Shown in pieces: positions 1,229 through 53,031 of a stretch of DNA of 64,000 bases; within the stretch, counting starts at the first letter, position 1, and each line of letters starts with the position of its first letter. Source of the stretch: a virus (Duplodnaviria; Heunggongvirae; Uroviricota; Caudoviricetes); IMG/VR virus record IMGVR_UViG_3300028859_000015. One strand, given 5' to 3'. Both the position numbers and the translations under genes were made by a program. The notes under the pieces were generated by a model that was not told the origin of the DNA, made no database searches, and saw only the letters and a list, made by a program, of their open reading frames with translations.

Positions 1229-1408
1229 TTTTTCTCCATAAAAGGCTAGAGTTAATCTATTTCTATAATTTCAAAATTATTTTTACTTCTATTTCTACGC
1301 TTACATAGTTTAGTAATCCAAAAATTAGCGTTTTCTATTGAAGAAAGTTCAAAATATAAATTTCCAGCATAAAATGTTATATATTCTCCAGAAATTACAT
1401 CTAAAATT

Positions 1409-1627
1409 TTATAGCTTTTCATTAATTTCCTCTATTTCAAACTCCTCCAAAGTTACTTCATAAGATATATCTTTATTATAATCATTCCACGTACCTCCAC
1501 GCTTTGTAACCCAGTTAATATCGTTCTTAATAGACTCCATAGCATCATCATAAGAAATATAAACTAGGTCTGTTCCTGAAAAACTTCTCATATATTGTCC
1601 AGAAGTTATGCATAATATTTTATACAT
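1409..1627 (-). CDS. HIPTG/EFEIIEI small-protein family member
   Basis: N-term MYKILCITSGQYM, C-term EFEIEEINEKL. First copy of tandem array 1. Confidence 0.6.
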   Translation of the reverse strand: MYKILCITSGQYMRSFSGTDLVYISYDDAMESIKNDINWVTKRGGTWNDYNKDISYEVTLEEFEIEEINEKL

Positions 1628-1868
1628 TATCTTCTATCCTTATAATTTCAAATTCGTTCTCATTAGTGACTTGTCCAATATCTACATTTTCATATATCCA
1701 GCAGGGAGATTGTGAATAAGTATATACTATTGACTTAATCCATTCTTGGCAAGCTAATTCAGTATTAAAAGTAGCTTTTCTATTTTTACCAGAATACACA
1801 TATTGCTCTGATGGTATGTGTAAAATAATGTACATATATTTAGAACTTCCAAATATGACTATGACCAA
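1620..1868 (-). CDS. HIPTG/EFEIIEI family member (true start probably internal Met at ~1835)
   Basis: Internal MYIILHIPSEQYVY, C-term NEFEIIRIEDNV. Confidence 0.6.
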   Translation of the reverse strand: MVIVIFGSSKYMYIILHIPSEQYVYSGKNRKATFNTELACQEWIKSIVYTYSQSPCWIYENVDIGQVTNENEFEIIRIEDNV

Positions 1869-2070
1869 TAAATAGTCTTTGAAGTAGTTCTAGCATTTGA
1901 TTTTTCCTTTAGCTATTAGGAGGAAGACTTCTTAATATATAATGCTCTAATGCTTGTATTTTTATATGTAAATCTTGTATATCTGTTTTTAATGCTTGTA
2001 TTTGGTTATTCATTGCTAGACATGAATCTATTAATTTTACCATAGCTTTCATTTCTTGTGGTGTCATTTC

Positions 2071-2313
2071 CTATTCCTCTGTTTTATATTTAATATATGG
2101 ATTTAAAATTTCATCTATTTCTCTCATTGCTGGTGGTAATCCCAAATACATATCTGCTCCTCCTTTACCACCAGATTTCCACAATTTCGGGTCTTTTCGT
2201 ATAGTTTCTAATGTGTTTGTTAGACATTTAGCACAAGGTTTATCATATTTAATATCTCTTGTAGGACCTTGTTGCCAATATTCTCCACAATTATTACATT
2301 TATATGTTGTCAT
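2071..2313 (-). CDS. zinc-ribbon protein (CNNCG...CAKC)
   Basis: 80-aa ORF with two CxxC pairs. Stop/start overlap with neighbours. Confidence 0.4.
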   Translation of the reverse strand: MTTYKCNNCGEYWQQGPTRDIKYDKPCAKCLTNTLETIRKDPKLWKSGGKGGADMYLGLPPAMREIDEILNPYIKYKTEE

Positions 2314-2314
2314 T

Positions 2315-2587
2315 TTATTTCTCCTGTATGGGGTTTGTTTTTATTAGTTCAAATTCAATATAGGATACTGGTTTATAGTTAGAAAATTGTTCACACCTCT
2401 TGTGTTCTGTTCTAATATAATAATCCAAATCTTCATTGTAGTCATTAATAGCATTTATTAAAACCCAATAAGCCTCTGACTTACTTTTAAAATTTTGAGT
2501 ATATACTTCAATATTATAATTATAAATACGCATATATTCTGATGAGGTTAATCTCAATATATTCCAAACTAATTTTTCTTTCTTCAT
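2315..2587 (-). CDS. divergent HIPTG/EFEIIEI-like family member
   Basis: C-term EFELIKTNP. The N-terminus is degenerate but sits in the array context. Confidence 0.45.
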   Translation of the reverse strand: MKKEKLVWNILRLTSSEYMRIYNYNIEVYTQNFKSKSEAYWVLINAINDYNEDLDYYIRTEHKRCEQFSNYKPVSYIEFELIKTNPIQEK

Positions 2588-2833
2588 TTATTCTCCTAGT
2601 TTTATTATTTCAAACTCTTCTTTAGAAATTCCTTCTCCAATATCAGCATTATACTCATTCCAACAAAAAGAATATGTAGAATTTATAGCATGCCACTCTA
2701 AGTTATTATCTATCATTATTTGAGCTTCTTTTTTTGAGTTTAAAAGAATATCACTATTTTTATAGTTTTTTAAATAATGTCCAGTAGGTATATGTAAGAT
2801 TTTATACCTTATCATAAATAACTTCAAATTCAT
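2588..2833 (-). CDS. HIPTG/EFEIIEI family member
   Basis: MIRYKILHIPTGHY ... EEFEIIKLGE. Confidence 0.6.
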   Translation of the reverse strand: MNLKLFMIRYKILHIPTGHYLKNYKNSDILLNSKKEAQIMIDNNLEWHAINSTYSFCWNEYNADIGEGISKEEFEIIKLGE

Positions 2834-3005
2834 TAATTATAAAATTACTCCAATTTATTTGCGGATTCCAATCTATTAAACTTGTTCCAAAGTAGTCTTC
2901 TAAATTATCTATTACTTGTTTAGCTGAAAAATCAGATAAAAACTCCCATGGTGTATCATAATATAGTAGATAAGTCCCAGTAGGTATATGTAAAATTTTA
3001 TACAT
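2802..3005 (-). CDS. HIPTG/EFEIIEI family member
   Basis: MYKILHIPTGTYLLY ... NEFEVIYDKV. Confidence 0.6.
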   Translation of the reverse strand: MYKILHIPTGTYLLYYDTPWEFLSDFSAKQVIDNLEDYFGTSLIDWNPQINWSNFIINEFEVIYDKV

Positions 3006-3008
3006 CTC

Positions 3009-3242
3009 TCATACCTCCACTATCTCAAATAATATCTTGTTTTCTGGTATTACTATATAACTAGCATCTGTTGGATATAGTATAATACGTTCATTTAGTT
3101 TCTCAATAGCTTCTTTTTTTGAATCTACTTCATATATATGATATGAAGATGTATTAGTAATTTCATTAGAACAATATAAATTTCCCTCAGGAAAGAAACA
3201 GTACAAATATTCCCCAGGTTCTATAAATAATATTCTATACAT
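3009..3242 (-). CDS. HIPTG/EFEIIEI family member (MYRILFIE subgroup)
   Basis: MYRILFIEPGEYLYC ... LFEIVEV. One of three near-identical tandem copies. Confidence 0.6.
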   Translation of the reverse strand: MYRILFIEPGEYLYCFFPEGNLYCSNEITNTSSYHIYEVDSKKEAIEKLNERIILYPTDASYIVIPENKILFEIVEV

Positions 3243-3244
3243 AG

Positions 3245-3478
3245 CTATACCTCCACTACCTCAAATAATATCTTGTTTTCTGATATTACTATATAACTAA
3301 TATCTGTTGGATATATTATAATATTTTCATCTAGCTTCTCAATAGCTTCTTTTTTTGAAGCTACTTCATATAAGGAATACAAATTAGAATGAGGGGTATT
3401 ACTTAAGTAATATAAATATCCATCAGTATATAGGCAATATAAATATTCTCCAGTTTCTATAAATAATATTCTATACAT
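3245..3478 (-). CDS. HIPTG/EFEIIEI family member (MYRILFIE subgroup)
   Basis: MYRILFIETGEYLYC ... LFEVVEV. Confidence 0.6.
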   Translation of the reverse strand: MYRILFIETGEYLYCLYTDGYLYYLSNTPHSNLYSLYEVASKKEAIEKLDENIIIYPTDISYIVISENKILFEVVEV

Positions 3479-3480
3479 GG

Positions 3481-3735
3481 CTATACCTCCACTATCTCAA
3501 ATAATAATCTATTATCAGGTATAGTCAATAGAATTTTATTAGCTAGTTCAATCTCTAAAACTTCAGATAGTTTATCAATAGCTTCTTTTTTTGAAGCTAC
3601 TTCATATATTTTAAACTTATAACATATATTCTTAGGAGGATTATTAACTTCATATGAGTAATACAAATTAGCATAAGGGGTATTACTTAAGCAATATAAA
3701 TATTCTCCAGTTTCTATAAATAATATTCTATACAT
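3481..3735 (-). CDS. HIPTG/EFEIIEI family member (MYRILFIE subgroup)
   Basis: MYRILFIETGEYLYC ... LFEIVEV. Confidence 0.6.
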   Translation of the reverse strand: MYRILFIETGEYLYCLSNTPYANLYYSYEVNNPPKNICYKFKIYEVASKKEAIDKLSEVLEIELANKILLTIPDNRLLFEIVEV

Positions 3736-3737
3736 GG

Positions 3738-4010
3738 CTATACCTCTACTATATCAAATAATAACGGATTTTCATCTAAGTAAATATCATTATGAAGTAT
3801 ATCAAGTATAGAAAATGAAGGATACTTAATAGTATCAGTAGCTTCAAATAGTATTTTTGCCTCTTCAATAGTTTTAAATTCCCAAGGAACAAATAGATTC
3901 TGCTCACCATCACCAACTATTTCATAAACAGAAAATTTTGAATCACAGTGAGGAGTGCCAATATATCTATAAATATAATCTCCACTTTCTATATATAATA
4001 TTCTATACAT
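3738..4010 (-). CDS. HIPTG/EFEIIEI family member
   Basis: MYRILYIESGDYIY ... LFDIVEV. Confidence 0.6.
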   Translation of the reverse strand: MYRILYIESGDYIYRYIGTPHCDSKFSVYEIVGDGEQNLFVPWEFKTIEEAKILFEATDTIKYPSFSILDILHNDIYLDENPLLFDIVEV

Positions 4011-4141
4011 AAATATCCACTATATTTCCTAAATAGTTTTTATTGGTTATATATTCTTTTATACCTTCTTTTTTATTTACTGGCTCTACTTTTCTGTAAA
4101 AAGTTATTTCATAATTAGGTATATAATTTGGAAATTGTATA

Positions 4142-4390
4142 TTAGCTATCATATTTATCCTCAATTTCTATTATTTCAAATTCATTTTCTACACATTGTT
4201 GAAAAATAAACCATTTACCAGAGTTTTTCATAGCAATACCTCTTCTAACTATATCGCATACAGTGACTATACAACTATTTCTTAAATTAGTCTTATACAA
4301 GTAAAATTCATGATTTGGTTGTCCACTACAAAGTATACCTAAAAAAGTATATATATATTCTCCAGTGGTTATATGTAAAATACAATACAT
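4142..4390 (-). CDS. HIPTG/EFEIIEI family member
   Basis: MYCILHITTGEYIY ... NEFEIIEIEDKYDS. Confidence 0.6.
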   Translation of the reverse strand: MYCILHITTGEYIYTFLGILCSGQPNHEFYLYKTNLRNSCIVTVCDIVRRGIAMKNSGKWFIFQQCVENEFEIIEIEDKYDS

Positions 4391-4391
4391 A

Positions 4392-4634
4392 TCATTCTCC
4401 TATTCTTATTATTTCAAATTCATTTTTATTGGTTTGATATAAGTTATGAAAAACTGGTTTTGAATTTGATATGTATATTCCTATTTCTACTATCGTTAAT
4501 ATACAAGCATTACACATTTCTATTGAGTTTACTTTAATGATTTTATATAGAGAATTTTTAAGTTCTCCACTATAAAATGTACCACTATAACTATATACAT
4601 ATTCTCCAGTTGTTATATGTAGAATAGTATACAT
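4392..4634 (-). CDS. HIPTG/EFEIIEI family member
   Basis: MYTILHITTGEYVY ... NEFEIIRIGE. Confidence 0.6.
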   Translation of the reverse strand: MYTILHITTGEYVYSYSGTFYSGELKNSLYKIIKVNSIEMCNACILTIVEIGIYISNSKPVFHNLYQTNKNEFEIIRIGE

Positions 4635-4635
4635 A

Positions 4636-4863
4636 TTATTTCTTTATTTCTACAAAGGTAACTTCAGAAAATAAATTATCAAGTCCTGCTGAACTTTCTT
4701 TAATTTCATGATTAAACGTAGTATATCGTAAAGTAGTTAGGATAACTTGTCGTAAAATATCAGCTTTATCAAATTTATCTTCTGGTATATTTCTAATAGT
4801 TATAGGTTTATTATAATAGTCCATAACATAAGTTCCAGTAGGTATATGTAGAATTTTATACAT
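4636..4863 (-). CDS. HIPTG/EFEIIEI family member (divergent C-term)
   Basis: MYKILHIPTGTYVMDY ... VTFVEIKK. Confidence 0.55.
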   Translation of the reverse strand: MYKILHIPTGTYVMDYYNKPITIRNIPEDKFDKADILRQVILTTLRYTTFNHEIKESSAGLDNLFSEVTFVEIKK

Positions 4864-4865
4864 AG

Positions 4866-5084
4866 CTAATCCTCCAGTCTTATTATTTCAAATTCATTTA
4901 TTGCTACAACTGTTCCTATATGTTTGTTATGTTCATTCCAGCCTAGGTAATTTAGTTTAGACAAAGCTAATATACACTTAATCTGTGTAGTTGCTTGTTT
5001 AATACTTTTGTAAATATCATTATTTCCATCACAGTCTTTTAGATATTCTCCAGAAGGGATATGAAGAATATAACATCTTTTCAT
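4866..5084 (-). CDS. HIPTG/EFEIIEI family member
   Basis: CYILHIPSGEYLK ... NEFEIIRLED. Confidence 0.6.
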   Translation of the reverse strand: MKRCYILHIPSGEYLKDCDGNNDIYKSIKQATTQIKCILALSKLNYLGWNEHNKHIGTVVAINEFEIIRLED

Positions 5085-5387: not shown

Positions 5388-6674
5388 TTAGCCAATATTT
5401 GATTGAATTTCAGATTGTCCTGCAGCAGTATCTTTTGCGTAACGAATAATATCCTCGCGAGTTAGACCTTTTTCTTTTGAAACTCCACCGAGAAGTTTAT
5501 TCATAAAATCGGTTGAGAGCTTACTTTCTCTCATTGCCTTTGCTACACTTTGAAGTGTCATAGTGGCAAGTTCCGCTGAAGTGGCATCTCCCATAAAACG
5601 AACACAGTAATGAATACCAGCTAGAAGTTTAAAAGCAGGAGAATTTTCATTATCAATTCGAACTGTAATTCCCTTAGTAGCAGCACTATTTACCTGAGCA
5701 ATACAGTGGTTAATACAGCTCATCATAGTTAGAAACTGAATTGCTACGTTATCCTCAATTTTTTCCTTCTTTGCAGTTAAAGTTCCCTCATAAATTTTCT
5801 CAATGTCAGGAATACGATTCATGTAAGCATAAGTAGTAGCAAACTCTGATGCTGCCTGAATTCCCACAGAACCTTCAACTAGAGGCTTAAGAAGAGAATA
5901 GTCTACCACATTATTTACTTTGGCACCTGATAGAGCATTAATGGACTGTGAAGCAATTGTCCATGAACGAGGGCAAGGAAAGGGTTCATTAGCTCCTGGT
6001 TCTGGAACTTCATAAGCAGAGCCAGGATAGATGCTCCACTTAGCCTGAAGAAACCGGCCAGAAGTTTTCTTATGGAATGCTGTGATAGAAGGATGAATAG
6101 AACCAGTAGCCATTGCGTAGTTGATAAAATCATCTAGTGAATAGTCAATAACAATGTTAATACAACGTGAAATTGTAGGAAAGTTCAAATCATTTGCTAG
6201 ACTATTGGTGCTTGGAGGATTACAGGCAGCAATGATATGAACATCACTATAGTCATCACCACCAATTGACTTAGAAGATAGAAGGTTCTGAACTGCTGCC
6301 AGTGTAGAAGGAGCACAGTTATTAAGCTCATCAAGAAAAAGATGATGCTTACCACGACCAAACATATCAGTTGGAGACATTCTAGTAATATCACGATTGT
6401 CTTCATCCTTCTGAATATTTGGCAGACCATTGGTATCTAGTGGGCCAATCTGAGAAAGAATAACAGTACGAAGCTTACGGGCACAAGAAGCAAACGTAAG
6501 TTCAGTAATTACACTCTTTGCGCAACCCGGCGCTCCCCAAACTATAATAGGAGCGAAATCCCTAGGGTCTGTATTCAATACAACGTTCTTCAAAAACTGC
6601 TCAAATTGCCCAATGGACATCTTTGTGGAGGTGGAGAAGAAATCCTTACTGATTGTTTCAGTTTTGTGAGCCAT
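5388..6674 (-). CDS. MoxR/CobS-like AAA+ ATPase
   Basis: Walker A VWGAPGCAKS, Walker B HHLFLDELNNC. 428 aa. Confidence 0.6.
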   Translation of the reverse strand: MAHKTETISKDFFSTSTKMSIGQFEQFLKNVVLNTDPRDFAPIIVWGAPGCAKSVITELTFASCARKLRTVILSQIGPLDTNGLPNIQKDEDNRDITRMSPTDMFGRGKHHLFLDELNNCAPSTLAAVQNLLSSKSIGGDDYSDVHIIAACNPPSTNSLANDLNFPTISRCINIVIDYSLDDFINYAMATGSIHPSITAFHKKTSGRFLQAKWSIYPGSAYEVPEPGANEPFPCPRSWTIASQSINALSGAKVNNVVDYSLLKPLVEGSVGIQAASEFATTYAYMNRIPDIEKIYEGTLTAKKEKIEDNVAIQFLTMMSCINHCIAQVNSAATKGITVRIDNENSPAFKLLAGIHYCVRFMGDATSAELATMTLQSVAKAMRESKLSTDFMNKLLGGVSKEKGLTREDIIRYAKDTAAGQSEIQSNIG

Positions 6675-6789: not shown

Positions 6790-7581
6790 ATGCCAAAAAA
6801 GATAGACTACACTAAATATATCGGTATGAAGTATGGTAATTTAACTATTCAAAGTATAGAAAAGGCTACTTATGGAGGAATGGTAGCTAACTGCCTGTGT
6901 GACTGTGGTAATGTGACAAAAAACACAGCTTTTTATGGATTAATTAATAATAAAATTACTATGTGTAAATCATGCTCAGGAAAAATTAATGGTGCTAAAG
7001 GAATTGTCTCTTTTAGAAACTCTAGTAAATATAATTACTTAATTGGAACAACTGTAAATTATTTTAAAGTATTAAGAAGAGCAACTTATGAAACTGACCC
7101 AACTGCTAAGATAGGTACTTTTGTTTGCCAATGCGTATGTGGAAATATTAGATACTTAGATGCTTATGGGCTAACAAAGGATTTAACTAGAAAATCATGT
7201 GGTTGCCAGTCAGGTAAGTTGCTATCTTTAGCTGCTGGTGGAACTGGTATACCTCATGAAATTTCCTCTATTAATGATTTGATTAGAAAAACTGACAGAT
7301 ATGAACAGTGGAGAACAGCTTGTTTTGAAGCTGCTAATTATACATGTGCTATTTCCGGAATTTGTGGACATTCTCTTAATGTTCATCATATAATTTCTCT
7401 TAAGACTATAAGAGATACATATAATATAACAAAAGAAAATTATACTGAGTTCTATGATGAACTTTTTGATATTAATAATGGTATTGTTTTAACTGAAGAA
7501 TTACACAAGAAACTTCACATAACTTACGGAAAAAACCCAACACCTGAACAACTTAAAGAATTTATGGCTTCTTATCAATAA
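6790..7581 (+). CDS. HNH homing endonuclease with duplicated Cys-rich zinc-finger N-terminal modules
   Basis: C-terminal HNH motif CAISGICGHSLNVHHII...NGIVLTEELHKKLH. Two CxCDCGN...CKSCSG-type repeats. One of the few plus-strand genes, inserted between minus-strand genes. Confidence 0.7.
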   Translation: MPKKIDYTKYIGMKYGNLTIQSIEKATYGGMVANCLCDCGNVTKNTAFYGLINNKITMCKSCSGKINGAKGIVSFRNSSKYNYLIGTTVNYFKVLRRATYETDPTAKIGTFVCQCVCGNIRYLDAYGLTKDLTRKSCGCQSGKLLSLAAGGTGIPHEISSINDLIRKTDRYEQWRTACFEAANYTCAISGICGHSLNVHHIISLKTIRDTYNITKENYTEFYDELFDINNGIVLTEELHKKLHITYGKNPTPEQLKEFMASYQ

Positions 7582-8194
7582 GTTCAAGAAAGTTAAATGT
7601 AGTTTTAAAACATTTTAGTTTGTCATCCTTTTTAAGCTCCTCAATAGTTTCCTTGACAATGGTTGTATTATCCATGTTAAGGATTTTTGCTATCCACTCA
7701 AGTAAATCAGAGTCTACTGAGAATACCAAAGAAAGTGGGATGCTTGTATCTTGGGCAGTCTTATCAGAGCCATCAATACATGTATATTCTGTTGGCATTA
7801 CATCTTCGTCAAAAATACAATTTTCTGCTAATTTTTTTGTAAGCATCATGTCATAAACAGATATACCATCTTCTGCTAAAGTTTTCATTTTTTCTTCATC
7901 TAGATTTAACATATCTTTTAGCTTTGTCTTATCTAAGAGAAATGTCTTAGAAGTCATCATCTCATCAACTACTCTAGTATCTTCTAAATCAGCTACTAAA
8001 TTAGACGTCTGATTGAAGGCACCTACAAAAAACATCTTATCATTAAATACATCTGATGAGATTTGACTAAAATCAGCAATACCATTATCGCCTATAACAA
8101 GAGTATTATATAGCCAATTAGAAAGAACAAATAATCCTAAGGTATATCTAACTGTAAATTTAGGATTACTCGTTAATTGTTCCAGATTCTCCAT
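7562..8194 (-). CDS. hypothetical protein (first gene of a seven-gene overlapping operon)
   Basis: 210-aa ORF. Its start overlaps the end of the 802-aa ORF. Confidence 0.45.
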   Translation of the reverse strand: MENLEQLTSNPKFTVRYTLGLFVLSNWLYNTLVIGDNGIADFSQISSDVFNDKMFFVGAFNQTSNLVADLEDTRVVDEMMTSKTFLLDKTKLKDMLNLDEEKMKTLAEDGISVYDMMLTKKLAENCIFDEDVMPTEYTCIDGSDKTAQDTSIPLSLVFSVDSDLLEWIAKILNMDNTTIVKETIEELKKDDKLKCFKTTFNFLELIDKKP

Positions 8195-10574
8195 TTGTTT
8201 CTCCTTCTTGAAGAATATTAGAGACTTCTTCTACTACTATAGTTGTAGAAGTATCTTTAGCTTTATGACCGCGTTTTTTAATTACTTCTACAGGTAAATA
8301 CGGAGTTTCAAGAAGTGCTAACTCTTGTAAAAGCAGCTCTGACTGTTCTAAGAATAGTTTATTTAACTCATGAGTAGCAGATTCTTCTAAATTAAGAATG
8401 TTTTTAGAGATTTCCTCTAAAGTGGGTCTTACATTTTTAAACCAATTATAATAATCTGTAAAGGTCTTACTCTTTTTTAATGCTGTAAATGTATCTAATA
8501 CATCTTGACCATATGTAAAACAATTAGAGTATGGTATCAATTCATTAGAAATGCTAACATAGTTCTCATCTTTTCTACATTCTAATTCATCAGATTGTTG
8601 TTGGTCAGTAGATAAAAAGTTATTAGAATATAAATAATACAATAGCTTACCAGTTAATTTTGAATAGTAATAACTATCAGTGGATAAATATTTGGTATCT
8701 GTTCTAAAATAGTCTTGCTTCATTTCAGAGTAGATATTTGAACCCAATTTAAAGATATTTAAATTTCCTGAAGATGGAGAAAAGTAACTTATATCCTGTA
8801 ATGAGGATGAGAAAAAGGACTCATGAAAATTACACAATAAATGTTTGAATACATTATTTATCTGTTGTTGATAAGGTATTCTATTAAAAGCTTTGTAAGA
8901 AGTTCCAAGTATAAATGACTCTATACACTGCTTAAAAGGAGTTCCCTCATAAGAAGTATCCTTATATAAATCTGAAATAGTGAGTGCTGCTATTGGCTTT
9001 AATTTACTAGCAGACGTGGTTTTAAAGTCTGTTAATTGCTTAATAAACTCTTCAGATAATTTATCATTTATTTGTATTTCTGAAGTTTCTTCTGGATTAG
9101 AAAAAGTATTAAAAAAGATATTTCCTGTAGCATATTTGGTGTCTGGAGATAAGGCCTCTAAAATAGACGCTTTGAAATTATATTTTTTATTTACTAATCC
9201 AGTCTCAAAATCTCTTATTGAAAATAATCTAACTGCCATATCTATTACTGGAGCCATGGCAGTGGAGATTTTTCTAGTTATTGCTGTCTTTTTAGCAGCC
9301 TCTTTTGCTAAAGAAGTCTTACTTAATAAAATTATTTTCTTATCTTTATTTTTTATTGGTATATATCTTCTATTAATAGACTCTATTTCAGAAATCATTG
9401 AATTAGGTTTCATAGCAAATTCAGTTTTTAGAAATTTCTCTTTAGATGTGGTTACTGACATTGCCTCTTTATTATCTAGATACATTTGTTTAATAGAGTC
9501 TATAAATTCAGAATTCAACTCTATATATTCCTCTACTCCTAAACTACGAGAAATTTCAGTAGTAGTTAAATTATCACTGTTTATAAATATAAAGGAATTA
9601 CCAATCCCGGAAGTATATCCTCTTTTGGAAGAATTAGAAAATTCAAATATGGGATTTAAAGATATACTATCATTTAATGCTTGGGATGAAAAGACCTCAT
9701 CAAAGGTCCTTGTAAGAGATGCTGTATTATAGCTAAAATTAAGAGGAGACTTTGATGGAAAAGAGCCTAATAATGTATATACTTTATTATCAAGGTAAGT
9801 AAAACCTGATAATCCCATGAAATCTGGGCCTAACGTTATAGATGTTGAATCTGACCAAGAAAATAAAGGAGATAAAGCTGCTATTAATTGGCTTCTATGT
9901 CTTATAAAAGAAGAAGTATCATGTATTAACTCAGATGGAATTTCTAACTCTTCTTTTATTAAAGTTTTTACTGAGGATGTAGGTAGATTGAAAGTTAATT
10001 TATTATATATACTAAGAATTTCATCTTCTGGAAGATTTGCTATAGAATTAATCCTATCAACTGCTTCAAAAGCAAAGGCTCTATAGGAATTAGCACTTAT
10101 TATTTTACCTTTATATAAATTTAAAAACATTCCAGATTGTAAGGTCTCAAAAAAGAAAGTATAAGAAGTAGCTACATTTCTATATAGCTCAGAGGCTTCA
10201 GAAACTTCTTGATTTGTAAATAAAGTTGTTGCCTTTTTAATTATAGGTATAAATAAGCTATTAACATAGTATTTAGTGTACATAGATGGAGTATCATATA
10301 TAAAATTACATGTCTCAGACCACTTACTTTCTGAATATACTCTGGAACCTGCTGGACTTCCACAATAGATATAAACTCTTGTTGGATTTTTTTCATTGAT
10401 AAATTCTGATAGTATTGTTTCTTTACCTTTATAAATTCTTTCATATAATTCTAAATAATTTTCTAAATTTTTAGCCTTTAAAATTTTAATTGGGTATTTA
10501 GCTGCTGTTTTTCCAAATAGCAATAGTCTTTCTTCTTCTGACAAAACTCTATAATTTAAAGTGTAATCAGTCAT
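8166..10574 (-). CDS. large hypothetical protein (802 aa)
   Basis: Longest ORF in the window. No motif recognisable by eye. Ser/Thr/Asn-rich. Confidence 0.55.
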   Translation of the reverse strand: MTDYTLNYRVLSEEERLLLFGKTAAKYPIKILKAKNLENYLELYERIYKGKETILSEFINEKNPTRVYIYCGSPAGSRVYSESKWSETCNFIYDTPSMYTKYYVNSLFIPIIKKATTLFTNQEVSEASELYRNVATSYTFFFETLQSGMFLNLYKGKIISANSYRAFAFEAVDRINSIANLPEDEILSIYNKLTFNLPTSSVKTLIKEELEIPSELIHDTSSFIRHRSQLIAALSPLFSWSDSTSITLGPDFMGLSGFTYLDNKVYTLLGSFPSKSPLNFSYNTASLTRTFDEVFSSQALNDSISLNPIFEFSNSSKRGYTSGIGNSFIFINSDNLTTTEISRSLGVEEYIELNSEFIDSIKQMYLDNKEAMSVTTSKEKFLKTEFAMKPNSMISEIESINRRYIPIKNKDKKIILLSKTSLAKEAAKKTAITRKISTAMAPVIDMAVRLFSIRDFETGLVNKKYNFKASILEALSPDTKYATGNIFFNTFSNPEETSEIQINDKLSEEFIKQLTDFKTTSASKLKPIAALTISDLYKDTSYEGTPFKQCIESFILGTSYKAFNRIPYQQQINNVFKHLLCNFHESFFSSSLQDISYFSPSSGNLNIFKLGSNIYSEMKQDYFRTDTKYLSTDSYYYSKLTGKLLYYLYSNNFLSTDQQQSDELECRKDENYVSISNELIPYSNCFTYGQDVLDTFTALKKSKTFTDYYNWFKNVRPTLEEISKNILNLEESATHELNKLFLEQSELLLQELALLETPYLPVEVIKKRGHKAKDTSTTIVVEEVSNILQEGETNGESGTINE

Positions 10575-10586
10575 TAGTGTTCCTTA

Positions 10587-11171
10587 TTAGTTTTTACTCA
10601 TTAATTTAGCATTATTAGACATTAGAAATGGAGTGATATCGAAGAACGCAAAATTAGCCATAAGTAGTTTACTAGTGGCAATTTTAGGATAAGCTATCTC
10701 AATGGAGAAGCCTTTTGTAAAAAATCCTGCTATAACTTCATACCAAGTAGATGAGCCATTGACAAAAATTATATCTGTTAGATGTGGATTTACAAGATAA
10801 TTTCCTTCATCATCTATTAAAGGAGAAATTACATTTTGCCAAATAGCATCTAATACGGATTCCATGTTTCCCGTTTCCTTATCATAGGAAACTCTTAATG
10901 GAGTCCAGCCAAAGGTAGTTAATTTCTGTACAAACTTTTGATTGTTTTGTAATTGTGTTAAAGACCTAGTATTTGATGAAATATCTTGTTGAGATACTAC
11001 ATAGGCAGATAGTAAATTTCTATCTTGGCCAACTAAATATTGTAAAAGGTCTTTATAGTCAACCCTTAACTTAGAATAACTACCATCAGCATTTTTAATA
11101 GAGTGGTTTAAAGTCCCTGTAAAATTAGCACAATTCAATACTATAATACAGTTACGCATAATTTCTCCCAT
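10587..11171 (-). CDS. hypothetical protein, possible NYN/PIN-like nuclease domain
   Basis: IIVLNCANF near the N-term and DIIFVNGSSTWYEVI near the C-term resemble the acidic-residue strands of NYN/LabA-like domains. Weak evidence. Confidence 0.3.
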   Translation of the reverse strand: MGEIMRNCIIVLNCANFTGTLNHSIKNADGSYSKLRVDYKDLLQYLVGQDRNLLSAYVVSQQDISSNTRSLTQLQNNQKFVQKLTTFGWTPLRVSYDKETGNMESVLDAIWQNVISPLIDDEGNYLVNPHLTDIIFVNGSSTWYEVIAGFFTKGFSIEIAYPKIATSKLLMANFAFFDITPFLMSNNAKLMSKN

Positions 11172-11182
11172 TTTAATAGAGG

Positions 11183-12058
11183 TTATTGGGGTATGTAAAT
11201 AGATTTAATCTCTTCACAAAGTTTATACTGAAGAAAATTTATGGCTTGATTTTTAAGTAAGGAAACCATAGAATTTTTAGACTCATGGGAAAGTTTTCCA
11301 AGTTCTTTTCTTAGACTATCACAACAAAAAGCTATGAAGTCTAAAGGTTTATCAGCTTGTTCTAAGGTTGCTAAAATAAGATTACTATCTTCAGATAAAA
11401 AGGAAGATAGCTCATTTGTTTTTAGATAATTTAAAGTTATAAAATATAATTTAACTAAGCTAGGTAGTTTAGGATATATTACTTTTATTTTTTCTTTGTA
11501 GGAATATCTACCTGTAACTTCTACTATTTCTCTACCTACAGCTTCTAAACTACCTAAGACAGAGATAGCTAAGATATATTTAGAAGGTAAAAAATTAGAT
11601 TTAATAGAGAAGAAAAAAGTATCAAAATCTCTACTCTTCCAAATTATATTACTTTCCTCTAAAAACATTGAAAAGAAAGGGTCCATTGAGTTTACTAAAT
11701 TAAAATTACAAAATCTGGCCATAGTGCTTACTATAATTTTAGATATATCTGAGAAACAATCAGAAAATTCTTGAAGAAGATATTTATTCTCTTCACTAAC
11801 ACGGGACATAAAAAAGGAAAAGACTTCAGTGTTAGTATATACAGTCTCATAAATAGCTTCAATAGAACTTCCTGACACATACTTAGTAAGGATAGATGAC
11901 ATAGTTGGAGTATAAACTAAGTGTAAGGTTTTTTCTATTCTCTCAAAATTAGTTGACAAAGTTTGTTCCATTACAGCATACTCAATAGAAATATTTGAAA
12001 TTTTATTTATAGTTTCAATACATTTTATTAGATTAGGCATTTGTATCATTAACTCCAA
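11183..12058 (-). CDS. hypothetical protein
   Basis: 291-aa ORF within the operon. Confidence 0.45.
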   Translation of the reverse strand: MELMIQMPNLIKCIETINKISNISIEYAVMEQTLSTNFERIEKTLHLVYTPTMSSILTKYVSGSSIEAIYETVYTNTEVFSFFMSRVSEENKYLLQEFSDCFSDISKIIVSTMARFCNFNLVNSMDPFFSMFLEESNIIWKSRDFDTFFFSIKSNFLPSKYILAISVLGSLEAVGREIVEVTGRYSYKEKIKVIYPKLPSLVKLYFITLNYLKTNELSSFLSEDSNLILATLEQADKPLDFIAFCCDSLRKELGKLSHESKNSMVSLLKNQAINFLQYKLCEEIKSIYIPQ

Positions 12059-12737
12059 TCAAGTAGTATTTTAAGTTATAGCTTTTAGCTACTAAGAAGT
12101 CATAGCGGTTATATTGTAGCTTTCTAATTCCTTTTGGAACTATCTTACAAAATAATGGGTAAGAGTTTCTTTGTATTTCCAACTCTATTTCAGATAAAGG
12201 TAATCTATAAAAATTCTCTTCCTTTGTTATTGAGAAGCCATATAAAATAATGTGTCCATTCTTCTTTGAGGTTAACAGTTGTTTAAAGTCATTATTAAAA
12301 GCAAAAGCAGTTAATCCTGAAGAGACTGAATAATCACTCCCTATGTATAAACAAGAAACAGAAGCTTCCACAGTGTCCTTTGTTATATTATTTTTTACAT
12401 ACCACTCTATTTGTGGTAATTTTCCAATATTTAAGACAGTAGAAATCAATTCAGTTGGAAATAGCATGGATAAACAAAGAGCAGCATATAATTTAGCAGG
12501 CTCATAGGAATATTTTATAGTTTCTTTAATAAACTTACTTTCACAAATAAATGAATCAAGTAAGGAAATTTCATAATATTGAACATTATACTTAGTTTTT
12601 ATATTGATTAGATTAGTTAAAGATATCAAAGTGCTTGTTTTAGGAGATATTTCAGGCCCCAAAAATATTTCAGCATGATGATTATGTGAGAACTCAATTA
12701 GTTCTTTTAGAGTCTCTTCTAAATTAAACATACTCAA
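12033..12737 (-). CDS. hypothetical protein
   Basis: 234-aa ORF overlapping both neighbours. Confidence 0.45.
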   Translation of the reverse strand: MSMFNLEETLKELIEFSHNHHAEIFLGPEISPKTSTLISLTNLINIKTKYNVQYYEISLLDSFICESKFIKETIKYSYEPAKLYAALCLSMLFPTELISTVLNIGKLPQIEWYVKNNITKDTVEASVSCLYIGSDYSVSSGLTAFAFNNDFKQLLTSKKNGHIILYGFSITKEENFYRLPLSEIELEIQRNSYPLFCKIVPKGIRKLQYNRYDFLVAKSYNLKYYLIGVNDTNA

Positions 12738-13506
12738 TATCCATTCCTGATATCTCTTTATTTATTAGATTATTAAATTGAGCCATAACTTCATTATTTG
12801 GAATTCTAAAACCATAATTTACAGTATATTTATAAAATCTTTCAGCTGACATTTGTTTTTCATATAATGGTGATTGTCCAGTGTTTAGAAGAAGTAATTT
12901 ATTAGCTAAGCTATAAAAATAATCTGGATGAATTACTACACTATTTAATGTAAATGAAGGAAATACTGAAGATACTGGAGATGTTTCTATAGATATATCA
13001 ATTCCAAAACAAGCTGGAATAATATCAAAAGCAGAAAGTATATCATCTGCTTCTGTTGGTAAAACAGAAATTCCATTATCCACAATAGATTTTGAAATAA
13101 TTTGAATTTTATAAGGTAGCTTTTGTAATCCATCAAAAGTTATTATATCTATATGAGAATTAGTGCCAGTATTTCCAGAAATTTTTTTTGATTTAATAGA
13201 CTTTCTAATAGCATTATTATATATAGTTATTACATTAGTAGAAGAAGCTAATGGATAGATATCTACATCTGACGGAAGCTCATTAAAAAATAGGGAACGA
13301 AAAACACCTCCAGCTATACAGTATCTTCCTTGTGGTAAGATAGATATTATAGGATTTATTCCTAATTTAATAGCTGGATAAACATATCTTGAAAGTATTG
13401 ATTCGTGTGTTGGACTAAAATGTAAAGCATTAGAAGCATTTAAGGCACTACTATCTAAAACCTCCTCTAAGGAGGTTTGTGGAAAGTTTAACATAAATTT
13501 CTCCAA
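12724..13506 (-). CDS. Pol-beta-superfamily nucleotidyltransferase-like protein
   Basis: IAGGVFRSLFFNELPSDVDIY matches hG[GS]-x(9-13)-DhDh. A possible third carboxylate lies in HIDIITFDG. Confidence 0.4.
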   Translation of the reverse strand: MEKFMLNFPQTSLEEVLDSSALNASNALHFSPTHESILSRYVYPAIKLGINPIISILPQGRYCIAGGVFRSLFFNELPSDVDIYPLASSTNVITIYNNAIRKSIKSKKISGNTGTNSHIDIITFDGLQKLPYKIQIISKSIVDNGISVLPTEADDILSAFDIIPACFGIDISIETSPVSSVFPSFTLNSVVIHPDYFYSLANKLLLLNTGQSPLYEKQMSAERFYKYTVNYGFRIPNNEVMAQFNNLINKEISGMDIEYV

Positions 13507-13559
13507 AATAAGTTATTTATTAATTAGGTTAGCCACTTTTGTGTATAAACCTTCTTCAT

Positions 13560-13916
13560 TTAATGCCAACTTTCTTTCTTATATGGAGTACTAATAATCT
13601 CTTTAGCTTTTTGTTTTTCTCTGTCTAACTTTGACTGAGCTTCTATGGCAGCCATTTTAATTAGAAAAAATTTATCTATGTTGTTTCGTTCTAACCAAGA
13701 CTCTACAATGGGTAGGTCTTTCTTATTAAACATTCTATGGTCTGTATTATTAACATACTGACCTACTACAAATAACGTACTCATTACCTCGTCAAAAGAT
13801 AAGGTATCTGAATAATCACACAAGTCAAAGGCTAGCTTAACACTTAAAACCTCTTTATTCTTCTTTGGATTCACTTTTTGTGCAGGTGCTTCTGTGGTCT
13901 CTTTTTTCCGTGACAT
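13560..13916 (-). CDS. hypothetical protein
   Basis: 118-aa ORF. Confidence 0.4.
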   Translation of the reverse strand: MSRKKETTEAPAQKVNPKKNKEVLSVKLAFDLCDYSDTLSFDEVMSTLFVVGQYVNNTDHRMFNKKDLPIVESWLERNNIDKFFLIKMAAIEAQSKLDREKQKAKEIISTPYKKESWH

Positions 13917-14557: not shown

Positions 14558-14791
14558 ATAGCTCCCTTTATTTTTTCTTGTCTGTCACAGATTGGCACGT
14601 CTCAGGAATAGAGAACCCAATTTTGGATTTCTTTGGGGTTTGTTTAGTTACTTTTTTAAGATTTAAAATTAATTTGATTGGAGGAACTCTCAAAGCCCAT
14701 TGAAAATATGCCATATAAACTATAAGCATTTTACATAAAAATGGAAGCAGGAGAGTTAGTAGTAATATTACAGTTATTGACATATTAACTC

Positions 14792-15166
14792 CTAGTTAGT
14801 TTCTTCTATTTTTTCGTATTTTACAATGCCAATATACTTTATTTTAAGAGCTTTTGCTACTGCCATATTTAAATCAAGAACCCTACCTCTAACATAAGGT
14901 CCTCTATCATTTACTTTGGCAATAACACAATCCCCAGTTTTAATATTTATTATTTTTAATAAGGTACCAAAAGGAAAAGTTTTACTAGCCACTGTAAATA
15001 ATTTAGAAGTTAATCTCTCTCCAGAAGCCGTTAATTTTCCCAATAGTCTATCTGAATTATTACCATATACAGAAGCAACTCCTGTTGTAGCACCAAACAA
15101 ATGACTGCTTATTAACATATGTATAGTTATATATGTAGTTATCTTTTTTATTATTTTTATAGTCAT
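14792..15166 (-). CDS. RlpA-like double-psi beta-barrel (DPBB) protein with N-terminal signal/TM segment
   Basis: ASVYG...LTASGERL...FPFGTLLKIINIKTGDCVIAKVNDRGPYVRGRVLDLNMAVAKAL matches the RlpA/expansin-like DPBB consensus. Confidence 0.7.
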   Translation of the reverse strand: MTIKIIKKITTYITIHMLISSHLFGATTGVASVYGNNSDRLLGKLTASGERLTSKLFTVASKTFPFGTLLKIINIKTGDCVIAKVNDRGPYVRGRVLDLNMAVAKALKIKYIGIVKYEKIEETN

Positions 15167-15184
15167 TAGTGTCCTTTTAGTTAA

Positions 15185-15601
15185 TTGTTAAGAGTTAAAT
15201 ATATGGTTAAACTTAAAAACGAATTAGTAAAGGGAAACAGAAGCTTAGCAGAGCAAATAACCATAGATTTGTTACGATTTAAATTTAAAAAATTAAAAGT
15301 TTTAACAAATGATAAAACAGCAATAGGAAAAGAATTAGATATATTTTTACCTGATTTTAAAATAGCAATTGAAATAGATGGTATTTTTCATCAAAGAATA
15401 GTCTACAGTGAAAAATCATTTGAAGCCACAAAGAAAAACGATTTAAGAAAAAACATTCTCTGTAAGGATGCTGGAATATTACTATTTAGAATTCCATTAC
15501 CAGAAGACAGCAGAACCTACTATACTTTTCTTAAAAAAGAAATATTAGAAAATATTGCCCCAGCTATTTCTAATATTATTAATGCTCCTACTATTTCTTA
15601 G
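15185..15601 (+). CDS. Vsr/DUF559-like PD-(D/E)xK endonuclease domain protein (possible free-standing homing endonuclease)
   Basis: ELDIFLPDFKIAIEIDGIFHQ motif. Plus-strand gene inside a minus-strand block. Confidence 0.45.
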   Translation: MLRVKYMVKLKNELVKGNRSLAEQITIDLLRFKFKKLKVLTNDKTAIGKELDIFLPDFKIAIEIDGIFHQRIVYSEKSFEATKKNDLRKNILCKDAGILLFRIPLPEDSRTYYTFLKKEILENIAPAISNIINAPTIS

Positions 15602-16208
15602 TATAAGTAAACATTGTTTGTATGTCTTTTCTTTCTCGTTTAATTAGCTCAAACTCTGCTGTTGAGAAAGAGTATGTCTTTCTGTCTTGTTTTTGTTTAT
15701 ATTGTCCAGAATGACGAATGTAAGAAGCCTCTGTAAATTTCAAGACACCAAAAGATTCCAAAAATTCTATAAATTCTTTGCCTAATTTTAATTGTATTAT
15801 CATGGTAAATAGGCTATTATGTTTATTTGTAAAGTCTTCATCTAGAAATAGTTGAGGGTCTTTTTGAAATAAAAAGGCTCCAACTAATGACGATTGTTTA
15901 GCATAATTACACAAAGAAGTCATAACGGAAAAGGCCAGCACAGCGTATAATTGGTCTATATCTTCTTCTTTAACCCAAATTTCTGTGCTTCCAAGACTGT
16001 AGGAAGTATCTAATGAAACTCCATTTATAAAATACTCTAAAATATCTGTTCCGCCCAAATAAAATTGGGTGATATTCCAATTCCTACGTCTAGAAAAAGT
16101 TTCTCCTGGTTTCATATTCCAAGTGTAGGCTTGTTTTAGTTGTCCGGAAAGTGTTTGAGCACTTACAAGGTTTAATAAAGAATAGAACACATCTGTTTTT
16201 TTAGCCAA
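15591..16208 (-). CDS. hypothetical protein
   Basis: 205-aa ORF. Confidence 0.4.
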   Translation of the reverse strand: MAKKTDVFYSLLNLVSAQTLSGQLKQAYTWNMKPGETFSRRRNWNITQFYLGGTDILEYFINGVSLDTSYSLGSTEIWVKEEDIDQLYAVLAFSVMTSLCNYAKQSSLVGAFLFQKDPQLFLDEDFTNKHNSLFTMIIQLKLGKEFIEFLESFGVLKFTEASYIRHSGQYKQKQDRKTYSFSTAEFELIKRERKDIQTMFTYTKK

Positions 16209-23981: not shown

Positions 23982-24236
23982 TTATACCTCAACTATAGCT
24001 AAGGATTCTGTATCAACCTTATGAAAGATACAAATAGTTTCTGAGAGTCTATATCTATAACAAGCTGCGTTATCTGACTCTTCTAATCTCTCTATAGCCT
24101 GTTTCTCATTATGTGCTTTATATATATGATGGTTACTGTGTCCATATATTGTTAACTCATATTCAGTATATAACGACACATTATTCTCTACTTCATATAA
24201 AAATTCTCCAGTTTCTATAACTAATATACTATACAT
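23982..24236 (-). CDS. HIPTG/EFEIIEI family member (MYRIL-like)
   Basis: MYSILVIETGEFLY ... LAIVEV. Confidence 0.55.
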   Translation of the reverse strand: MYSILVIETGEFLYEVENNVSLYTEYELTIYGHSNHHIYKAHNEKQAIERLEESDNAACYRYRLSETICIFHKVDTESLAIVEV

Positions 24237-24834
24237 TATTATAATTCATAATATTTATTAAAATATCATCCAATTTAACTGGTTTAAAGTTATTGGCATC
24301 TACTCCAACATCGTACATTCTCTCTCTTTTCATTGTAATCTTAGAATGTTGGTGGCCATGTAATAAATACTGTCCAAAATCTTTAATATGATACTGTCTA
24401 TATTTTTCATCAAATGGTAAAATAATGTTATCCTCAAAAGGAAAATGGCTTAACTGTATTTTAGAAATATCATATGTAGGAAATGGTATTTCATTATCCA
24501 TTAAAACTTGAACCAAAGAAATATTTTCAGAATAAACCTTTAAAAATCCAGCCTCTAAATATTTTTGTGTCCATAAAGGCTGATAAAATGGTTTATCATG
24601 ATTTCCTACAATCAGAAAATGACTACCATTTAACTGCTTAACCATTTTAAGACTTTCATCTACTTTTCCCATACAAATATCACCTAAATGTATACAAGAA
24701 TCTGTATCTTTAACTAAGATATTAAAATTATTAATTATAGTCTCATTCATTTCTTCCTTACTTAGAAAAGGCCTATTTGCTAGAGCCAATATATTTTTAT
24801 GATTTAAATGCTCATCAGATGTGAAATAAATCAC
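24229..24834 (-). CDS. calcineurin-like metallophosphoesterase
   Basis: SDEHLNH, GDICMG, GNHD motifs. Confidence 0.75.
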   Translation of the reverse strand: MIYFTSDEHLNHKNILALANRPFLSKEEMNETIINNFNILVKDTDSCIHLGDICMGKVDESLKMVKQLNGSHFLIVGNHDKPFYQPLWTQKYLEAGFLKVYSENISLVQVLMDNEIPFPTYDISKIQLSHFPFEDNIILPFDEKYRQYHIKDFGQYLLHGHQHSKITMKRERMYDVGVDANNFKPVKLDDILINIMNYNNV

Positions 24835-50139: not shown

Positions 50140-50218
50140 TATTTATCCCCTTCATTGGTTTGTTAGTACTTGATGGAATAGCTATAAAAGCTACTCCACT
50201 AAATACTAAAATCAAATA

Positions 50219-50977: not shown

Positions 50978-50981
50978 TTTA

Positions 50982-51968: not shown

Positions 51969-51981
51969 TGTAGTTCTCCAG

Positions 51982-52218: not shown

Positions 52219-52220
52219 TA

Positions 52221-53018: not shown

Positions 53019-53031
53019 CTATCAAATCAGC

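Follow-up and report, generated by a model that had tools for sequence, protein, structure and literature searches.

On the minus strand of a 64,000-nucleotide stretch of DNA from an uncultivated, low-GC phage (the whole of this stretch is referred to as the window) lie seven consecutive genes, g1 to g7, and the question they raise is whether they make up one dedicated system. The original prediction, made from the letters of the window, saw among them a nucleotidyltransferase, a possible NYN nuclease and a large protein, and likened the set to a signalling, abortive-infection or counter-defence module. The reading that we favour, tentatively and with rather less than even confidence, is that the block is a clade-specific, vertically inherited non-structural stretch of a jumbo phage that holds two functional units plus g1, and is not one dedicated system.

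Gene content, surroundings and distribution of the block

The seven ORFs of the original prediction are all found in their predicted positions (Table 1), and in pairwise comparison with a relative, L006, all seven have a dN/dS below 1 (0.05-0.46). They are real genes under purifying selection; an ORF of 802 codons in DNA of 29% GC, together with these dN/dS values and the kept order of the orthologues, places them beyond chance ORFs, and the 802-aa protein that had been claimed is confirmed as g6. The starts first assigned were too long in four genes, being TTG codons in g2, g3 and g4 and an upstream ATG in g5; ATG starts supported by Shine-Dalgarno sequences agree with public gene calls for g2 to g5. 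In g2 a GGAG ribosome-binding site stands ahead of the ATG and the TTG first chosen, at 13506, lies inside that site.

The genes had been described as contiguous with stop/start overlaps, and they are indeed all co-directional, but after revision of the starts true overlaps remain only at g2/g3 (8 nt), g3/g4 (8 or 17 nt) and g6/g7 (29 nt), the rest being short gaps of 65 nt (g1-g2), 23 nt (g4-g5) and 12 nt (g5-g6). As read from the DNA this is a predicted operon: its genes run in one direction, neighbours are 12-65 nt apart or overlap by 8-29 nt, and there is no internal terminator-like site. Such a site was looked for on the minus strand of the block and none was seen, and promoter-like and terminator-like sites show no excess over chance. 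In a hydropathy scan all 19-residue windows fall below the value typical of transmembrane segments, the maximum Kyte-Doolittle mean being 1.56.

Table 1. Genes of the block and its immediate neighbours, in window coordinates
Feature	Coordinates	Strand	Description
HNH homing-endonuclease gene	6790..7581	+	PF13391 HNH_2, E 1.2e-4; convergent with g7, 20-nt overlap at the g7 3' end
g7	7562..8194	-	210-aa acidic orphan, pI 4.4; most conserved of the block
g6	8166..10574	-	802-aa clade-restricted protein, no sequence or fold relative
g5	10587..11159	-	190-aa NYN/LabA-fold protein; highly conserved
g4	11183..12049	-	Orphan; start ATG 12049 (288 aa) or 12040 (285 aa)
g3	12033..12731	-	232-aa orphan; start overlaps g2 by 8 nt
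g2	12724..13494	-	256-aa Gad2-family nucleotidyltransferase (by sequence); likely start ATG 13494
g1	13560..13916	-	118-aa orphan; basic N-terminus; strongly constrained
Zinc-ribbon gene, 56 aa	13855..14025	-	Two CxxCxGxG-like motifs; directly upstream of g1, 62-nt overlap with the g1 start

The plus-strand HNH endonuclease gene predicted at the flank is confirmed. A similar-sized gene on the opposite strand occupies this site in L006 and in the contig carrying P0004, and none does in L008 or L010-L013; a gene that is there in some relatives only shows that the HNH gene is not part of the block. It sets apart from the block a MoxR-like AAA+ ATPase and its VWA/DUF2201 partner (phrog_1297), a pair that occurs in many phages and is the conserved downstream neighbour in every relative, with an array of small paralogous genes on its other side. 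At the other end of the block stands the zinc-ribbon gene, which the original prediction had not listed; it is kept in relatives and has weak or faint precomputed matches to DnaJ_CXXCXGXG and Anti-TRAP.

At least eight lineages, the window among them, have all seven genes in the order g1 to g7; these are uncultivated, low-GC phages with contigs of ~225-233 kb (same-order orthologues in L006, L010, L011, L012, L013, L015 and L019), and the block was never found outside this one phage clade. Orthologues of g1 and g4 are found in all lineages, those of g1 even where g2 and g3 are absent, and g4-g7 stand in order in nearly all lineages of the clade and nowhere else. Both g2 and g3 are missing from L008 and from the contig carrying P0004, which retain g4-g7, and this joint absence is a single loss in one lineage. 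At the edge of the clade the content varies: L021 contains an additional gene of 665 aa, and in L018 g5 is not followed by g6.

The flanks are as syntenic as the block itself in every relative (DUF3841, SLT/DPBB, dCMP deaminase, MoxR-like ATPase and DUF2201). Within its one phage clade the block is inherited vertically, as a fixed part of the genome. Given this inheritance and the conserved flanks it is not a mobile defence or anti-defence island, which would be patchy, accessory and present in unrelated genomes. Co-occurrence of the seven genes in other genomes had been suggested as a check on the proposed module; their order is kept, but so is that of the flanks, and co-occurrence is therefore no proof of a single system.

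Since the flanks are equally syntenic, the kept order may reflect genome collinearity only, and the seven could be unrelated clade-specific genes that lie side by side with no functional coupling past shared transcription. The variable content at the clade edge is consistent with this, as are evolutionary rates that differ widely among the genes: dN/dS against L006 is 0.05 for g7, 0.08 for g1 and 0.46 for g3, the fastest-evolving gene of the block, whose positional orthologues are barely detectable at the sequence level. We consider collinearity as the whole explanation unlikely, as the conserved start/stop overlaps of g2/g3 and g6/g7 and the joint loss of g2 and g3 argue for coupling that is at least pairwise.

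The NYN-fold protein and the orphan genes

A possible NYN nuclease was among the predicted products, and the predicted structure of g5 confirms the NYN fold, but the label of nuclease is doubtful, as the canonical catalytic aspartates conserved in NYN domains appear to be replaced. Identity to solved structures of the NYN/LabA-like group (PF01936; VPA0982, 2qip; MARF1 NYN, 5yaa) is 12-15%, and the Pfam NYN model PF01936 matches 3 of 30 members of the g5 family weakly (best E 0.0042) and does not match the g5 of the window. Strand 1 ends in N13 and the loop after strand 4 reads N138-G139-S140-S141-T142-W143, where NYN proteins have sGDsDf, so that the three aspartates of the NYN motifs read N13, S140 and T142, positions assigned by motif and strand position and not by residue-level structural alignment. 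Within this family, which is restricted to the clade, G139 is invariant and conservation reaches at least 90% at N13, N138 and S140; a different active site could be formed by further acidic residues that are conserved (D38, D63, D133 and D178).

The remaining five products other than the nucleotidyltransferase had been called unrecognisable, and so they are: g1, g3, g4, g6 and g7 have no match in Pfam, PHROGs, NCBIfam, PADLOC or PDB sequences. The g1 family returned no matches, the family profile of g4 found none in PDB sequences and its individual members none in Pfam or PHROGs, and g7 has none in the PDB. The largest of them, g6, is confined to 24 clusters in a set of 1.84 billion proteins and has no Pfam, PDB or BFVD relative by sequence or by fold, the structure model being usable (pLDDT 80). 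Residues ~400-455 make up a basic hairpin-helix segment that is conserved, and the disordered C-terminal tail has a conserved PYLP..KKRGRKxK motif with an acidic run after it. The core of a canonical AT-hook is RGRP, and the KKRGRK of g6 would be termed only AT-hook-like. An enzyme signature is not seen in g6, which might conceivably still be a novel enzyme. Constraint is far stronger on g5 and g7 than on g6, and against their counterparts in L008 g7 has 71% identity and g6 37%. In every relative the g7 start overlaps the g6 end, by 26-38 nt, and this conserved overlap suggests that translation of the two genes is coupled.

Proteins of this kind, g4-g7 together or g6 alone, could be virion or ejected internal proteins with a part in the internal head, ejection or scaffolding, and structural prediction had been named as the means to decide on such roles. 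The g6 model has no similarity to any virion protein in the PDB or BFVD, known virion folds do not include the NYN fold of g5, and the whole 64 kb is non-structural, with genes for nucleotide metabolism and RNA repair as the neighbours (RNA ligase, phosphoesterase, AAA ATPases, dCMP deaminase, ThyX, an initiation-factor-like gene and two tRNAs) and, among the window ORFs scanned, none that was recognised as a capsid, portal, tail or terminase gene. A virion role is accordingly a rather improbable explanation.

The nucleotidyltransferase gene g2

The hG[GS]...DhDh nucleotidyltransferase signature noted at the outset is real and is invariant in g2. The Pol-beta motif hG[GS]-x(9-13)-[DE]h[DE]h is present as A65-G66-G67, twelve residues and then D80-V-D82-I, within a set of invariant residues (A65 G66 G67 .. 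R70 .. D80 x D82, then F160 D161) of which D161 provides the third carboxylate. The invariant counterparts in Gad2 (Gabija anti-defence 2, PF26128) are A30 G31 G32, D45, D47 and F106 D107. This family is phage-borne and common among large phages. Gad2 itself, from SPbeta-like Bacillus phages, has been shown by experiment to be an anti-Gabija protein and was predicted to be a nucleotidyltransferase by its authors, whose list of homologues includes short forms of 214-278 aa and was the source of the Gad2 sequences compared here (bioRxiv 10.1101/2023.05.01.538930).

With hhalign the g2 family aligns to nine verified Gad2 homologues at a probability of 97.7% (E 1.8e-12, 151 columns) and to the single verified B. 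laterosporus Gad2 at E 1e-4. Matches to PF26128 are found for g2 and 11 of 14 g2 homologues in precomputed annotations, the model being unreported in the local Pfam scan, and phrog_4400 matches g2 at E 2e-7. Judged by its sequence, g2 is a short Gad2-family nucleotidyltransferase with a head of the class-II, CCA-PcnB-like type and intact catalytic motifs, and from the Gad2 homology and the alignment of its motif with human TRNT1 it probably has a Pol-beta fold. A check against the CD-NTase, SMODS and OAS families had been proposed; g2 matches none of their models, there being no Pfam match beyond a weak one to PolyA_pol, none in PADLOC at E <= 0.1 and none in NCBIfam.

The likeness to Gad2 covers ~150 homologous columns of the N-terminal nucleotidyltransferase domain, in which the AGG, D.D and FD motifs and an R..KY..G[YF] segment are common to both. 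Only residues 22-172 of Gad2 are aligned, not the full-length architecture; at 256 aa, g2 is missing the C-terminal half (~220 aa) that is present in the tested proteins of 394-400 aa, and the anti-Gabija activity applies to those long forms. Residue R70 of g2 (in GGvFRS, a form also seen in CCA enzymes) corresponds to a T in the Gad2 proteins of Bacillus phages (GGtITS), and g2 sits in a conserved block whereas Gad2 was described from a variable anti-defence locus. The neighbouring g3 was considered as a displaced Gad2 C-terminal domain and rejected (hhalign probability 0.4%). Gad2 homologues in cultured phages stand without equivalents of g3-g7, for example in GAP32, where the neighbourhood resembles that of the window in having Dam, RnlA and PseT.

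The same catalytic head invites a reading of the block as an RNA or tRNA maintenance module, in which g2 would be a tRNA nucleotidyltransferase of CCA-adding or poly(A) type in minimal form and g5 would bind or cleave RNA, acting with the tRNAs, RNA ligase and phosphoesterase of the window to counter host nucleases that attack anticodons or 3' ends. RNase activity is typical of NYN domains, MARF1 being an example, and the RnlA and PseT genes beside the GAP32 homologue also fit. With HMMER, g2 and the class II tRNA nucleotidyltransferases have in common a GG.vR(D/S)...D.D strand-turn motif, and TRNT1 is aligned exactly on the catalytic motif IAGG.vR....p.DiD; we further take FD(F/I)(T/I) of g2 to resemble class-II motif B (RDFTiNa) and R(F)YKY..YGF the LRa.RFaa.lgF segment. 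Assignment of g2 as a class II CCA-adding enzyme or poly(A) polymerase was nevertheless rejected, the TRNT1 score (E 1.4) and that of the PolyA_pol head PF01743 (E 0.05, 14.4 bits against a cut-off of 23) being non-significant while the relation to Gad2 is strong, and g2 ends about 100 residues past the head with no body or tail domain for binding tRNA. The EDxxR templating motif of class-II CCA enzymes is also not seen in g2, which counts against the module, as do the replaced aspartates of g5, and we hold such a module to be very unlikely.

Least probable of all is that the seven genes form one signalling, abortive-infection or counter-defence system, with a signal or modification made by g2, an NYN effector nuclease and g6 as scaffold, for although the packing is tight and uninterrupted, g2 is homologous to an anti-defence protein and g5 has the predicted fold, there is no match to any PADLOC model or, above threshold, to Pfam, the would-be effector reads N, S and T at its catalytic positions, g2 and g3 are lost where g4-g7 persist, Gad2 homologues elsewhere stand alone, and the restriction to one clade with conserved flanks is unlike a mobile system. 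Of the module first proposed the nucleotidyltransferase, now seen to be homologous to Gad2, and the NYN fold survive, but nothing joins the seven genes, and homology to a counter-defence protein holds for g2 alone.

Possible functional units of the block

In the two-unit reading that we favour, unit A would consist of g2 and the fast-evolving g3 that overlaps it, and since one lineage has lost both genes the unit would be dispensable. We infer that g2 would transfer a nucleotide to a host or nucleotide-like target and so weaken a host response, in the way that Gad2 counters Gabija. Unit B would consist of g4-g5-g6-g7, retained in nearly all lineages, and the division between the units rests on the one loss event.

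Within unit B, g5 would bind rather than cut nucleic acid, as its replaced metal-binding aspartates suggest, g6, a protein whose fold has no known relative, would bring its conserved basic core segment and AT-hook-like KKRGRK tail, and g7 would be its very conserved acidic partner. We infer that these products may assemble into a nucleic-acid-binding complex whose targets during infection would be DNA or RNA of the phage or the host.

Gad2 is already a known family, and it is g6, g1, g3, g4 and g7 that resemble nothing known. A more specific proposal, which we regard as speculative and on balance unlikely, is that g4-g7 encode a previously undescribed nucleic-acid-handling complex of this jumbo-phage clade, built from a catalytically dead NYN protein, a ~800-residue protein of no known fold with an AT-hook-like tail and an acidic g7, with the Gad2-like nucleotidyltransferase as a separate, dispensable counter-defence add-on. 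If this were true, the g4-g7 complex could serve to organise the AT-rich phage genome or its transcripts, or to mark or shield them.

Gene content and organisation of the block

The block comprises seven minus-strand genes, g1 to g7 in order of transcription (13916 to 7562), in a window that has a GC content of 29% and nearly all of its genes on that strand. All seven reading frames were recovered exactly where the original prediction had placed them and they are genes rather than chance ORFs; pairwise dN/dS values against L006, a 123-kb contig of a related uncultivated phage, are 0.08, 0.33, 0.46, 0.28, 0.07, 0.24 and 0.05 for g1 to g7, values that are approximate as dS is near saturation (g6 is 61% identical to its L006 counterpart). 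Four of the proposed starts were over-extended, these being the TTG codons of g2, g3 and g4 and an upstream ATG of g5. GGAG-type ribosome-binding sites precede ATG codons at 13494 (g2), 12731 (g3), 12049 or 12040 (g4) and 11159 (g5), and the starts corrected in this way agree with public gene calls of 256, 232, 285/288 and 190 aa respectively. With these starts g2 and g3 overlap by 8 nt, g3 and g4 by 8-17 nt and g6 and g7 by 29 nt, the remaining junctions being gaps of 12-65 nt. Scans for sigma-70 promoters and terminators found such sites at chance level, with no terminator-like site on the minus strand of the block. Transmembrane products were also considered and rejected, as the maximum Kyte-Doolittle mean over 19-residue windows is 1.56 and none of the seven proteins has a convincing transmembrane segment.

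The small gene that overlaps the start of g1 encodes a zinc-ribbon protein with two CxxCxGxG-like motifs and weak matches to DnaJ_CXXCXGXG and Anti-TRAP. At the other end of the block the HNH gene behaves as a mobile homing endonuclease, given that its position is filled by a gene in only some of the relatives. Further along, the MoxR-like ATPase has a more remote partner gene, DUF2201 (VWA / metallopeptidase-like), for example at 14573-15946 of the related contig L001; both are kept throughout the clade, and in all relatives the interval between them is filled with small genes, which in the window form paralogous families. A second family of small, internally repetitive paralogues surrounds a DUF6745 protein, and elsewhere a phosphoesterase adjoins an RNA ligase in what looks like an RNA-repair pair. 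In L006 an IS605 OrfB / Cas12f-like TnpB gene (1-322) lies about 10 kb upstream of the block.

Features of the window outside g1 to g7
Feature	Coordinates	Strand	Remarks
Small-gene array, about 15 genes (56-90 aa) in tandem	1252-5084	minus	directly downstream of MoxR-like ATPase
Example paralogues in array	3009-3242, 3245-3478, 3481-3735, 3738-4010	minus	30-68% identity
MoxR-like AAA_5 ATPase	5388-6674		phrog_1297, E 3e-45
HNH gene	6790-7581	plus	real gene
Zinc-ribbon gene, 56 aa	14025-13855	minus	overlaps g1 start by 62 nt; kept in relatives
Further small genes of the array type	23982-24236, 61358-62371		
Phosphoesterase and RNA ligase	24229-26551	minus	phrog_547, E 3e-39; phrog_968, E 8e-41
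tRNA-Gln	30949-31022		
Match to PHROG 'translation initiation factor'	34105-34608	minus	phrog_9787, E 3e-40
tRNA-Leu	43456-43540		
ThyX	46660-47373		33 kb from g2
Second small-paralogue family (63-103 aa), within 49903-58984	49903-50139, 50771-51082, 51982-52218, 54365-54562, 54566-54763, 56361-56600, 58793-58984	minus	internally repetitive
DUF6745 protein, 328 aa	50982-51968	minus	E 4e-50

The recognisable products, g2 and g5

Searches of the seven proteins against Pfam, PHROGs, NCBIfam and PADLOC returned only weak matches to PolyA_pol and phrog_4400, both from g2. Within the g2 family (14 homologues) A65-G66-G67, R70, D80, D82, F160-D161, H193-P194 and R223-F-Y-K-Y are invariant, and HMMER aligned the first of these motifs on the catalytic motifs of the Pfam PolyA_pol head (E 0.05) and of the human CCA-adding enzyme TRNT1 (E 1.4), alignments that are suggestive and not significant. 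There was no match to the CD-NTase, SMODS and OAS models of Pfam and PADLOC. The Gad2 family (PF26128) appears in the collection's precomputed annotation of g2 and most of its homologues, and the local Pfam copy did not report it. SPbeta-like phages encode Gad2 as their second anti-Gabija protein; it is 400 aa long and was predicted by its authors to be a nucleotidyltransferase (bioRxiv 10.1101/2023.05.01.538930). An alignment was built from nine homologues in Supplementary Table 10 of that work, among them the Brevibacillus protein, which has been verified by experiment, and short forms of 214-278 aa, and the g2 family matched it in profile-profile comparison with a probability of 97.7% and an E value of 1.8e-12 over 151 columns (g2 53-252, Gad2 22-172). 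As the two families also have the same invariant residues, g2 is judged from its sequence to be a short-form member of the Gad2 nucleotidyltransferase family.

What g2 lacks, in comparison with the Gad2 proteins that have been tested, is their C-terminal half. It is not supplied by g3, as a split Gad2 was rejected with an hhalign probability of 0.4%. Gad2 homologues are also widespread in large cultured phages (139 records), with nearly all of those listed annotated as hypothetical. The homologue in the jumbo phage GAP32 has Dam, RnlA and PseT in its vicinity, but nothing there resembles g3 to g7, and a relationship between g3 and the gene downstream of the GAP32 homologue was likewise rejected.

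The g5 family, with proteins of about 190-210 aa, has 46 clusters, every one of them from this phage clade, and an AlphaFold2 model of g5 made from 30 sequences has a pLDDT of 91. In NYN proteins the motif vfiDgeN stands where strand 1 ends, and vLvSgDsDf follows strand 4. At these positions, as placed by motif and strand position only, g5 has IVLNCAN (N13, N16) and IFVNGSSTW (N138, G139, S140, T142), residues that are conserved family-wide. The NYN fold of g5 is real, but with the classical metal-binding aspartates replaced the protein is probably not a classical NYN nuclease. Further conserved acidic residues (D38, D63, D133 and D178) leave room for a different site. In g5 we have a clean example of an NYN fold that lacks its catalytic aspartates and is nevertheless very strongly constrained.

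The orphan products

For g1, g3 and g4 no relatives were found, and their orthologues, together with those of g7, gave no match to Pfam or PHROGs. Against PDB sequences, neither individual proteins nor family profiles (g2, g3, g4, g5, g6 and g7) gave anything significant. A HMMER search of 1.84 billion representative proteins with the g6 profile found 24 proteins, mostly of about 780-850 aa with the rest shorter, and nothing that connects them to another family; Pfam matches are absent from all members. Most of the residues that are invariant in g6 are K, R, Y, W or N, which is not an obvious catalytic set, and conservation is highest in a basic hairpin-helix (residues 400-455). At the C-terminus a family-wide PYLP..KKRGRKxK motif, which looks like a non-canonical AT-hook, is followed by an acidic, Ser/Thr-rich tail. 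This family of 800-residue proteins is well modelled and has no structural relative. The 210-aa g7 protein is acidic (pI 4.4) and the most conserved of the block; a match to FtsB was rejected as a hydrophobic-helix artefact.

Conservation, origin and possible roles of the block

Proteins identical to g6 are encoded on contigs of three JGI metagenomes (3300029913, 3300029915 and 3300037149) and in two SRA runs, whereas nothing was found in cultured phages (INPHARED) by megablast of the block or by tblastn of g6 and g2. The neighbouring MoxR-like ATPase is no more than 27% identical to proteins of cyanophages and other cultured phages. An origin from a prophage or a cellular genome was rejected since there is no g5 relative among 185,579 GTDB species genomes. 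The scanned window ORFs include, beside the RNA ligase and phosphoesterase, AAA+ ATPases, a glycosyltransferase, dCMP deaminase, ThyX, an initiation-factor-like protein, OmpA and SPFH proteins, with no recognisable virion gene among them. Given this gene content, the lack of cultured or GTDB matches and relatives' contigs that reach 220-233 kb, the window is a non-structural arm of an uncultivated jumbo phage.

Loci around g6, g5 and g2 homologues were scored with family HMMs. The full order g1 to g7 is retained in seven related loci (L006, L010, L011, L012, L013, L015 and L019), while one sub-lineage (L008 and the contig carrying P0004) has g1-g4-g5-g6-g7, with g2 and g3 both absent. A recent insertion of g2 and g3 was rejected because the lineages furthest removed (L010-L013, L019 and L021) have both genes, which makes their absence from L008 a loss. 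In four lineages (L010-L013) ThyX is directly upstream of g2, with a gap of 3-9 nt or an overlap of 8 nt. Gene content varies at the margin of the clade, where the variants include an additional 665-aa gene between g5 and g6 in L021 (6755-8752) and, on the short contig L018, a 206-aa gene (1240-1860) directly after g5 that is not g6, no g6 being present; its product aligns collinearly with g7, an alignment that is not significant (E 0.0097, probability 4%). An apparent disruption of g7 in L007 was rejected as an assembly gap of Ns.

The flanks (DUF3841, an SLT or DPBB lytic enzyme and dCMP deaminase, then the MoxR-like ATPase, the small-gene array and the DUF2201 protein) are conserved as well as the block itself, so co-occurrence reflects genome collinearity and cannot alone show a functional system. 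That the seven genes are collinear without any coupling seems rather unlikely. We tentatively propose two units instead. The products of g4 to g7 would be made together in one of them, as suggested by the overlap of g6 and g7, which is 26-38 nt in every lineage. This unit probably binds, rather than cuts, nucleic acid, given the NYN fold without aspartates, the basic segments of g6 and the acidic partner g7. The dispensable g2, perhaps with g3, would form the other unit, in which a Gad2-type nucleotidyltransferase may act in counter-defence or in nucleotide-linked manipulation of the host. Virion or ejected proteins are an improbable alternative for g4 to g7, or for g6 alone, and a role in RNA or tRNA maintenance, to which the CCA-like motif of g2 and the two tRNAs of the window might point, is more doubtful again. 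A single integrated system of g1 to g7, as originally proposed, is very unlikely with g2 and g3 lost together from one sub-lineage. The original reading as signalling, abortive infection or counter-defence is supported in part: counter-defence has homology behind it in g2 alone, and no evidence points to signalling or abortive infection.

We can say with confidence that the block is a real, clade-specific gene set, and that known superfamilies account for two of its products. Those parts that can be recognised add new members to known families, and the others are orphan genes, which are common in jumbo phages; on present evidence it is a set of orphan phage genes and not a demonstrable new system. 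The most promising leads are the g6 family with its orphan fold and g5, a pseudo-NYN protein under constraint; together with the short Gad2-type g2 they give structural biology and biochemistry concrete targets. With g2 the Gad2 family of anti-defence nucleotidyltransferases gains a short, CCA-like form. This form is a fixed part of uncultivated jumbo phages from the environment, where it often follows ThyX immediately, and it may help to solve the problem of what Gad2-type enzymes target.
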